Positions 6,373 to 6,543 of a stretch of DNA of 64,000 bases are shown piece by piece. Source of the DNA: Escherichia coli. Lineage in GTDB: Bacteria > Pseudomonadota > Gammaproteobacteria > Enterobacterales > Enterobacteriaceae. Numbering within the stretch: the first letter of the stretch is position 1; each line of letters begins with the position of its first letter. The position numbers and the translations under genes are program-made. The stretch lies in the NCBI RefSeq assembly GCF_003334815.1, contig NZ_QOWO01000016.1; one strand, written 5' to 3'. The notes under the pieces were generated by a model. That model had not been told where the DNA came from. It was given only the letters and a program-made list of their open reading frames with translations, and did not search any database.

Positions 6373-6543
6373 ATGTTTGTCAAACCTGTTAAAGGGCGGT
6401 CAGTGCCTGACCCTGCCCGCGGCGACCTTTTGCCCGCCGAAGGGCGAAATGTTGACGAGAACAACTACTGGCTGCGCCGTGAAGCAGCGGGTGATATCCG
6501 GCGCGTGAATAAAAAGGTGAACACCGATGACGATAAGCTTTAA
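6373..6543 (+). CDS. small conserved protein (56 aa) upstream of tail sheath, Mu-like-prophage small-protein type
   Basis: ATG at 6373 preceded by GAGGA at 5-nt spacing; 56 codons; overlaps sheath start; below the 60-aa cutoff of the ORF track; translation MFVKPVKGRSVPDPARGDLLPAEGRNVDENNYWLRR... Confidence 0.5.
   Translation: MFVKPVKGRSVPDPARGDLLPAEGRNVDENNYWLRREAAGDIRRVNKKVNTDDDKL

Follow-up and report, generated by a model that had tools for sequence, protein, structure and literature searches.

Does the short open reading frame (ORF) lying immediately upstream of the tail sheath gene in this Escherichia coli sequence encode a genuine protein and, if it does, what might that protein do for the phage tail? 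The initial annotation of the window (the whole stretch of 64,000 nucleotides that was analysed) had presented this ORF of 56 codons as a conserved small protein with a good ribosome binding site (RBS), overlapping the start of the sheath gene, located where small proteins are found in Mu-like tail clusters, and missed by an ORF cutoff of 60 aa. The ORF, its parts, and its neighbours in the tail module are as follows:

5795 to 6364, plus strand: tail terminator (Mu gpK/gp37-like, SfV orf9), 189 aa; phrog_209, E=6.5e-63
6363 to 6367, plus strand: GAGGA, Shine-Dalgarno-like, 5 nt before the ATG, as read from the sequence
6373 to 6543, plus strand: DUF2635/Mu gp38-family gene, identical to SfV orf10, 56 aa
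6373 to 6507, plus strand: codons 1-45, conserved domain predicted to fold into short strands and one helix (AlphaFold2, AF2, pLDDT 93-96)
6508 to 6540, plus strand: codons 46-56, variable charged C-terminal tail, predicted to be disordered (pLDDT <50), which carries the RBS and start of the sheath gene
6527 to 6543, plus strand: 17 nt shared by the DUF2635 and sheath ORFs, a geometry suited to translational coupling
6527 to 8023, plus strand: Mu-type tail sheath (SfV orf11), 498 aa; phrog_165, E=1e-230, and Mu sheath chain 9khy, E=1e-79
8023 to 8379, plus strand: tail tube protein; phrog_185, E=1e-44
8379 to 8648, plus strand: gene at the tail-chaperone position; phrog_166

The ORF starts with the ATG at 6373, which is the earliest start codon past the preceding in-frame stop, and ends with the TAA at 6541-6543, giving the protein MFVKPVKGRSVPDPARGDLLPAEGRNVDENNYWLRREAAGDIRRVNKKVNTDDDKL. 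Its translation signals are as the initial annotation had described them: GAGGA precedes the ATG at a spacing of 5 nt, overlapping the TGA stop of the upstream terminator gene, and the last 17 nt are indeed shared with the sheath gene. The sheath's own Shine-Dalgarno, AAGGTG (6513-6518), sits within the codons of the C-terminal tail. The sheath start at 6527 is backed by an N-terminal alignment with Mu gpL, whose start was confirmed by protein sequencing according to the Mu GenBank record. Hence, the start and stop geometry of these genes, in a late-operon position, would permit translational coupling of the DUF2635 gene to the sheath gene. Scans of the surroundings of the ORF for promoters and terminators, and for Rfam families, gave nothing above chance. 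The surrounding 6 kb contain 63 ORFs with 30 aa or more, and a length of 56 aa alone is not significant. We therefore regard the ORF as a real gene because of its homology and the selection acting on it, and not because of its length.

The 56-aa protein matches the Pfam family DUF2635 (PF10948) over positions 1-45 of the 46 of the model (i-E=1.1e-16) and PHROG 208 (phrog_208) over positions 4-59 of 64 (E=3.6e-26); neither the ORF nor its neighbours matched a family in NCBIfam. It is 42.3% identical to Mu gp38 (tblastn, E=9e-7) and 100% identical to SfV orf10, which is noted in the SfV record as 'similar to phage Mu GP38'. The idea of a conserved small protein is thus confirmed by two profile HMMs and by the identity to SfV orf10. 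An exhaustive profile search showed that the family comprises 3,470 clusters at 50% identity (E<=1e-3). Nearly all members have 50-100 aa, with a median of 67, and the domain starts no later than residue ~10 in almost every one of the 150 family representatives listed. The protein studied here shares these traits with the family: it matches the profile, is homologous to Mu gp38, is small and standalone with an N-terminal domain, and is encoded between a terminator and a sheath gene. A search with a narrower family alignment gave 80 identical loci with no diversity. The exhaustive search also returned two repeat proteins, P0194 (1,408 aa) and P0128 (3,101 aa), each of which has many matches to one short part of the DUF2635 profile, e.g. 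through a motif similar to 'VVDPTDGDLLAQAGEIV'. We rejected them as DUF2635 fusions or homologues, since they are repeat-motif artefacts of the profile search.

We then compared the ORF with its orthologues in ST64B and phiP27. The dN/dS ratio is 0.06-0.18 over the 45-codon domain, third codon positions hold 18-20 of the 26-27 nucleotide differences, and conservation at the protein level is found in frame 0 only. Judging from these substitutions, the DUF2635 protein is under strong purifying selection. This bears on the idea that the ORF is a translation-only leader, i.e. one that delivers ribosomes to the sheath start while encoding a functionless peptide, or that it arose by chance. The 17-nt overlap and the presence of the sheath Shine-Dalgarno inside the ORF are what one would expect of such a leader. 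Yet the low dN/dS concerns the amino-acid sequence itself, the protein is conserved from Enterobacteria to phages of Acetobacter, Bordetella, Vibrio, and Agrobacterium, and its fold is confidently predicted. This explanation is thus extremely improbable, and the pattern of conservation already refutes it. It is almost certain that the ORF is a genuine tail-module gene of the DUF2635/Mu gp38 family.

This gene is already known and is routinely annotated. Its RefSeq product is named 'DUF2635 domain-containing protein' (WP_000497751.1) and adjoins a 'phage tail terminator protein' and a sheath. The locus is present in 1,080 of 5,426 complete E. coli genomes. Hence, the 60-aa cutoff invoked in the initial annotation explains only the absence of the gene from the mechanical ORF list, as public annotation pipelines do call it. 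The correction to the annotation is accordingly small: the cutoff hides a gene that RefSeq had already called and Pfam had already named. The DNA between 5795 and 8023 has 96.9-98.2% nucleotide identity to 12 phage records (SfI, SfII, SfIV, SfV, and relatives). The gene order of the window is that of SfV, with the Mu-type tail and the HK97-type head that characterize SfV-like prophages, and the gene is the orthologue of SfV orf10 in such a prophage. The gene is missing from the annotation of a few records. In phiP27 (NC_003356.1) it is present but unannotated (positions 2501-2662 of our locus L088), in the space that separates L43 from the sheath gene L44, and it is apparently unlisted in some SfIV-type records too (SfIV/VIT_AJPSC).

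Other observations concern the rest of the prophage. Several RefSeq phage records have propagated the label 'portal protein' of PHROG 209 to homologues of Mu gp37. This label is a misnomer, because both the cryo-EM structure of Mu and the RefSeq annotation of E. coli identify these proteins as tail terminators. Downstream of the tube gene, the end of the gene at 8379-8648 overlaps an ORF in a different frame (8615-8797, plus strand), just before the tape-measure gene. AF083977.1 records a programmed frameshift for Mu gp41/Mu_56, and the layout here resembles it. We considered, and rejected, the possibility that the 56-aa ORF itself encodes a tail assembly chaperone of the gpG/GT type: it lies upstream of the sheath, and the module has its own gene at the chaperone position (8379-8648). 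Upstream, the genes of the major capsid protein and of the Ad1 adaptor flank a 66-aa ORF (4393-4593, plus strand). Its position is kept in ST64B (Sb7), and it is a hypothetical protein in E. coli G12. In the region that gene order assigns to tail fibres and tail-fibre assembly (about 15687-18491), two ORFs are on the minus strand (16787-17389 and 17389-17910) and are followed by a 196-aa ORF on the plus strand. A related E. coli genome has, as its equivalents of these genes, an inverted pair (tail-fibre assembly/gp53-like) together with the site-specific recombinase pinE, which suggests that the region is an invertible host-range segment.

If the gene is real, with which part of the particle is it associated? 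The genes follow a constant order: terminator (~160-200 aa), DUF2635, sheath, tube, chaperone, and tape measure. We found this order in Mu, SfV, ST64B, phiP27, Burkholderia BgVeeders33, Citrobacter phiNP, and Stutzerimonas PG1, and also in Acetobacter phiAP1, Bordetella PBb002, Serratia BZS1, Alteromonadaceae B23, Haemophilus SuMu, and Vibrio phages. A DUF2635 homologue is also directly upstream of the sheath in phage 7-7-1 and in Pseudomonas tailocin clusters. We analysed 191 loci (190 fetched plus the region of the window), a sample that is biased by how it was fetched. Among those with enough downstream sequence, 178 of 180 have a Mu-type sheath directly downstream of DUF2635, and a terminator is directly upstream in 172 of 175. 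The distance between the DUF2635 stop and the sheath start ranges from -17 to +14 nt, the commonest arrangement being a 1-nt overlap (52 distinct proteins). The position upstream of the sheath is therefore as typical as the initial annotation had supposed, with homologues at the equivalent place in Mu, SfV, and many other phages.

The head modules accompanying these loci are of three kinds: HK97-type, lambda D/E-type, and Mu T-type. As all three occur beside the same gene order, the DUF2635 gene travels with the tail module. P. fluorescens Q8r1-96 has kept it in a tailocin-type cluster without a head module, in which repressor, holin, and colicin-M-like genes precede those of the tail. Among the 59 Pseudomonas-type loci, connector genes are found upstream in only one. 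A functional R-type syringacin retains only the tail and regulatory genes of an SfV/Mu-like phage (Hockett et al., PMC4542187). On the evidence of gene content and order, DUF2635 belongs to the contractile-tail module and not to the head module.

The structure predicted with AlphaFold2 consists of a compact beta/alpha domain of ~45 residues, with a helix at residues 31-39, followed by a charged tail predicted to be disordered. Residues P5, G8, D13, P14, L20, G24, W33, R35, R36, G40, and D41 are invariant in an alignment of 18 diverse family members, among them Mu gp38 and one protein from Pseudomonas. Past residue ~45, the tails of the family are variable, charged, and of low complexity, with 5-60 residues. 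Sequence searches of the PDB with the single protein and with the family profile gave only chance-level matches (E of at least 0.26), although Mu sheath chains are deposited there. We also failed to identify solved structures with significant similarity to the model (Foldseek E>=1.1). There is a resemblance in fold to the N-terminal domain by which ribosomal protein L9 binds rRNA, and the invariant W-x-R-R motif could contact RNA, which would fit a small nucleic-acid-binding regulator, for instance of sheath translation. We find this improbable. The fold matches are not significant and equally include the protein-binding GINS B-domain and lambda gpFI-C, the locus has no conserved RNA element (no Rfam match), and the junctions with the sheath gene vary, with overlaps of up to 17 nt and gaps of up to 14 nt. 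In addition, fusions of the domain to fn3 or to other extensions (see below) are ill-suited to a cytoplasmic regulator.

Is the protein part of the finished particle? Our literature searches turned up no study of the genetics or biochemistry of a DUF2635 family member, and the proteomics papers on SuMu and on Pseudomonas tailocins do not mention a homologue. The most direct information comes from two particles. The first is the 2025 cryo-EM study of Mu, whose maps of the connector and terminator-tail regions reach 3.4-3.5 Å (PMC11915804). In that work, gp38, gp35, and gp41 are listed as 'probably structural', yet their structures could not be resolved, and the text does not mention unassigned density (PMC11915804). 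[quoted passage not shown]

The second particle is that of Agrobacterium phage 7-7-1, of which gp125 is the top structural match to the DUF2635 model in BFVD. This protein has 68 aa, is a member of PHROG 208 (E=5.7e-7), and is encoded between the 179-aa structural protein gp124 and the phrog_165 sheath gp126. The virion proteome of 7-7-1 contains 24 proteins, including gp124, gp126, gp127, and polypeptides of only 3.2 and 4.3 kDa, and gp125 is absent from it (PMC3517404). In the same proteome, gp124, which is present in six copies, gave a single peptide (PMC3517404). Hence, the absence of gp125 argues strongly against a virion component of high copy number and weakly against one of low copy number.

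These data also bear on a functional label given to the family in Mu. The AF083977.1 record calls Mu_38 a 'putative sheath terminator protein', with no supporting note, which would make the protein a ring capping the sheath, like T4 gp15 or P2 gpS. The location of the gene beside the terminator and sheath genes is consistent with this label. Known sheath terminators are, though, far larger than a 45-residue domain. The DUF2635 protein has no similarity in fold or sequence to known terminator or completion proteins, and the gene is dispensable in a lineage with the same family of sheaths (see below). The curated label conflicts with the 2025 structure of the Mu virion, where the gp37 hexamer caps tube and sheath and no further cap is seen (PMC11915804). 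The Mu structure thus largely refutes the label already, and we consider a sheath-terminator function very improbable.

Additional clues come from Mu-type tails that lack the gene. Among 22 loci with a Mu-type sheath, 17 have an HMM-detectable DUF2635 upstream; the small ORF of RR1-A was assigned via PHROG 208 (E=6.9e-8). In KS10 (locus L103, 1119-1397) and vB_D1 (L101, 1083-1349), two BcepMu-like Burkholderia phages, an ORF of 88-92 aa occupies the position of DUF2635, without detectable similarity to the family (hhalign probability 11%) and without a PHROG. Either this ORF is related to DUF2635 but extremely diverged, or a non-homologous gene has taken its place. In the Ralstonia phages YO002_1 and YO382_2, a terminator-like ORF abuts the sheath gene and there is no small gene in between. 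The terminator (1025-1504) and sheath (1501-2973) of YO002_1 overlap by 4 nt (loci L097/L192), and a search of its whole genome revealed no DUF2635 (best E-value 0.14). At least one lineage can thus do without the gene.

The terminator of YO002_1 is still a phrog_209 member (E=1e-17), 26% identical to that of the window, and it lacks ~30 residues near the C-terminus that all the terminators associated with DUF2635 keep. The missing segment corresponds to residues ~145-172 of the window terminator, which in the AF2 model form short helices and the first strand of the C-terminal hairpin. We found no lineage-specific indels in the sheath matching the loss of DUF2635 in YO002_1. Phages of Ralstonia solanacearum account for 99 of the 188 Mu-type sheath matches. 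The YO002-type records that we examined lack DUF2635 and have the shorter C-terminal arm, and the related YO122_2 keeps DUF2635.

We propose that the gene encodes a transient accessory of tail assembly, acting when the terminator locks the sheath. We infer such a role because the protein is absent from two independent particle datasets (the Mu map and the 7-7-1 proteome), because the gene is retained in headless tailocins, and because it was lost together with the sheath-gripping arm of the terminator in one lineage. The DUF2635 protein would be made together with the terminator and the sheath, and its conserved domain would bind transiently at the proximal end of the tail. The likeliest partner would be the C-terminal beta-hairpin arm of the terminator and/or the sheath protomer that this arm is to lock. 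Such binding would help the last step of tail completion, the capping and locking of the sheath, after which the protein would leave the finished particle, so that it would not be a stable part of the virion. The co-loss with the terminator arm concerns a single lineage. An exploratory AF2 prediction of a single fused chain (terminator, (GGS)5 linker, and DUF2635; 21 paired sequences) gave a pTM of 0.53 and no sign of docking, a result that says nothing on oligomeric contexts. Taken as a whole, from the reality of the gene to the mechanism, we give this proposal somewhat less than an even chance of being correct.

The main competitor is that DUF2635 is a structural protein of the neck or proximal tail, present in low copy. 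Its domain would be anchored on the terminator, the top sheath ring, or the connector, and its tail would be displayed at the surface, the variable C-terminal part being replaced by fn3 or lectin-like domains in some phages. A conserved N-terminal domain followed by a hypervariable C-terminal tail fits such a protein well. So does the location of the gene between terminator and sheath, since gene order often mirrors the position of proteins in the particle, and the authors of the Mu structure themselves considered gp38 to be 'probably structural' (PMC11915804). The rare long members of the family point in the same direction. In these, the domain is joined by a Pro-rich linker to other domains, as in P0192, where it precedes fn3 (E=1.4e-5), and P0239, whose extension has weak matches to PHROGs of tail fibres and virion proteins. 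The fusion genes sit among the connector genes Ad1, Hc1, and Neck1, or beside a Laminin_G_3 gene. Such associations with fn3 and Laminin_G_3, more typical of structural proteins exposed on the virion, count against an accessory role. In two of the metagenomic contigs (fusion genes at 3036-4244 of L005 and 2958-3473 of L006), the neighbours are a 441-aa protein without a PHROG match and the Laminin_G_3 gene.

Against a neck protein, the C6 and C12 maps of Mu at 3.4-3.5 Å have no density for gp38, where a rigidly bound domain of 45 residues should show, and gp125 went undetected in the virion proteome of 7-7-1. The YO002 lineage of Ralstonia phages lost the gene without any replacement. Moreover, only four of the top 150 representatives, all of them metagenomic, are fusions, and none was seen beside a sheath gene; we detected no sheath gene on their contigs. 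In such phages, whose contigs show no Mu-type sheath, the domain may have taken on a new role as an anchor. We consider a neck protein rather unlikely.

The transient accessory has a broader form, in which DUF2635 proteins are a dedicated class of chaperones for Mu-type tails and the tailocins derived from them, holding the terminator arm or a surface of the sheath. The sheath would then be capped only once the tail is complete, and the fusions to fn3 or lectin-type domains would be cases in which a docking domain was reused as a permanent anchor in the neck. This extension is possible but doubtful. To our knowledge, there is no described precedent for a sheath or terminator chaperone of this kind. 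DUF2635 is among the few universally conserved genes of the SfV/Mu-type contractile tail module without a described role. It is kept even in the tailocins of Pseudomonas, which are now being developed as precision antibacterials.

How does the gene compare with known systems? The closest is SfV orf10 (NP_599042), which like WP_000497751.1 occupies the slot between orf9 and orf11 with the same 17-nt overlap. We found no difference between them and take them as the same gene in another copy of this prophage family. Mu gp38 (Mup38, AAF01116), the founding member of DUF2635, is homologous over residues 3-54 and has the same slot, from K/gp37 to L/gp39. It differs by its length (67 aa), by a longer acidic/basic tail, and by overlapping both neighbours (by 14 and 4 nt), and Mu itself differs from the SfV-like phages in having a Mu-type head and no Hc1 and Neck1 genes. 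At the other extreme, gp125 of 7-7-1, a virulent flagellotropic myovirus of 69 kb, is very divergent (hhalign probability of only 30%), and the protein at the terminator position of this phage is not recognized as phrog_209.

Outside the family, the C-terminal domain of lambda gpFI (2lsm) and YqbF of a B. subtilis prophage (2hjq) resemble the model only in fold class, below significance and without sequence similarity, and the L9-N-like and GINS-B-like modules of phages act on heads, not on tails. In terms of function, T4 gp15, P2 gpS, lambda gpG/GT, and Mu gp41 act at or near the stage of assembly proposed here for the DUF2635 protein. The terminators T4 gp15 and P2 gpS are larger and visible in particles, unlike the DUF2635 protein. 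Like DUF2635, the chaperones lambda gpG/GT and Mu gp41 have their genes in the tail module, and they are not part of the virion, as we propose for the DUF2635 protein, to which they are similar in neither fold nor sequence. However, chaperones of the gpG/GT type are expressed with a programmed frameshift from genes located after the tube gene and before the tape measure, unlike DUF2635, and in Mu that role is filled by gp41/Mu_56.
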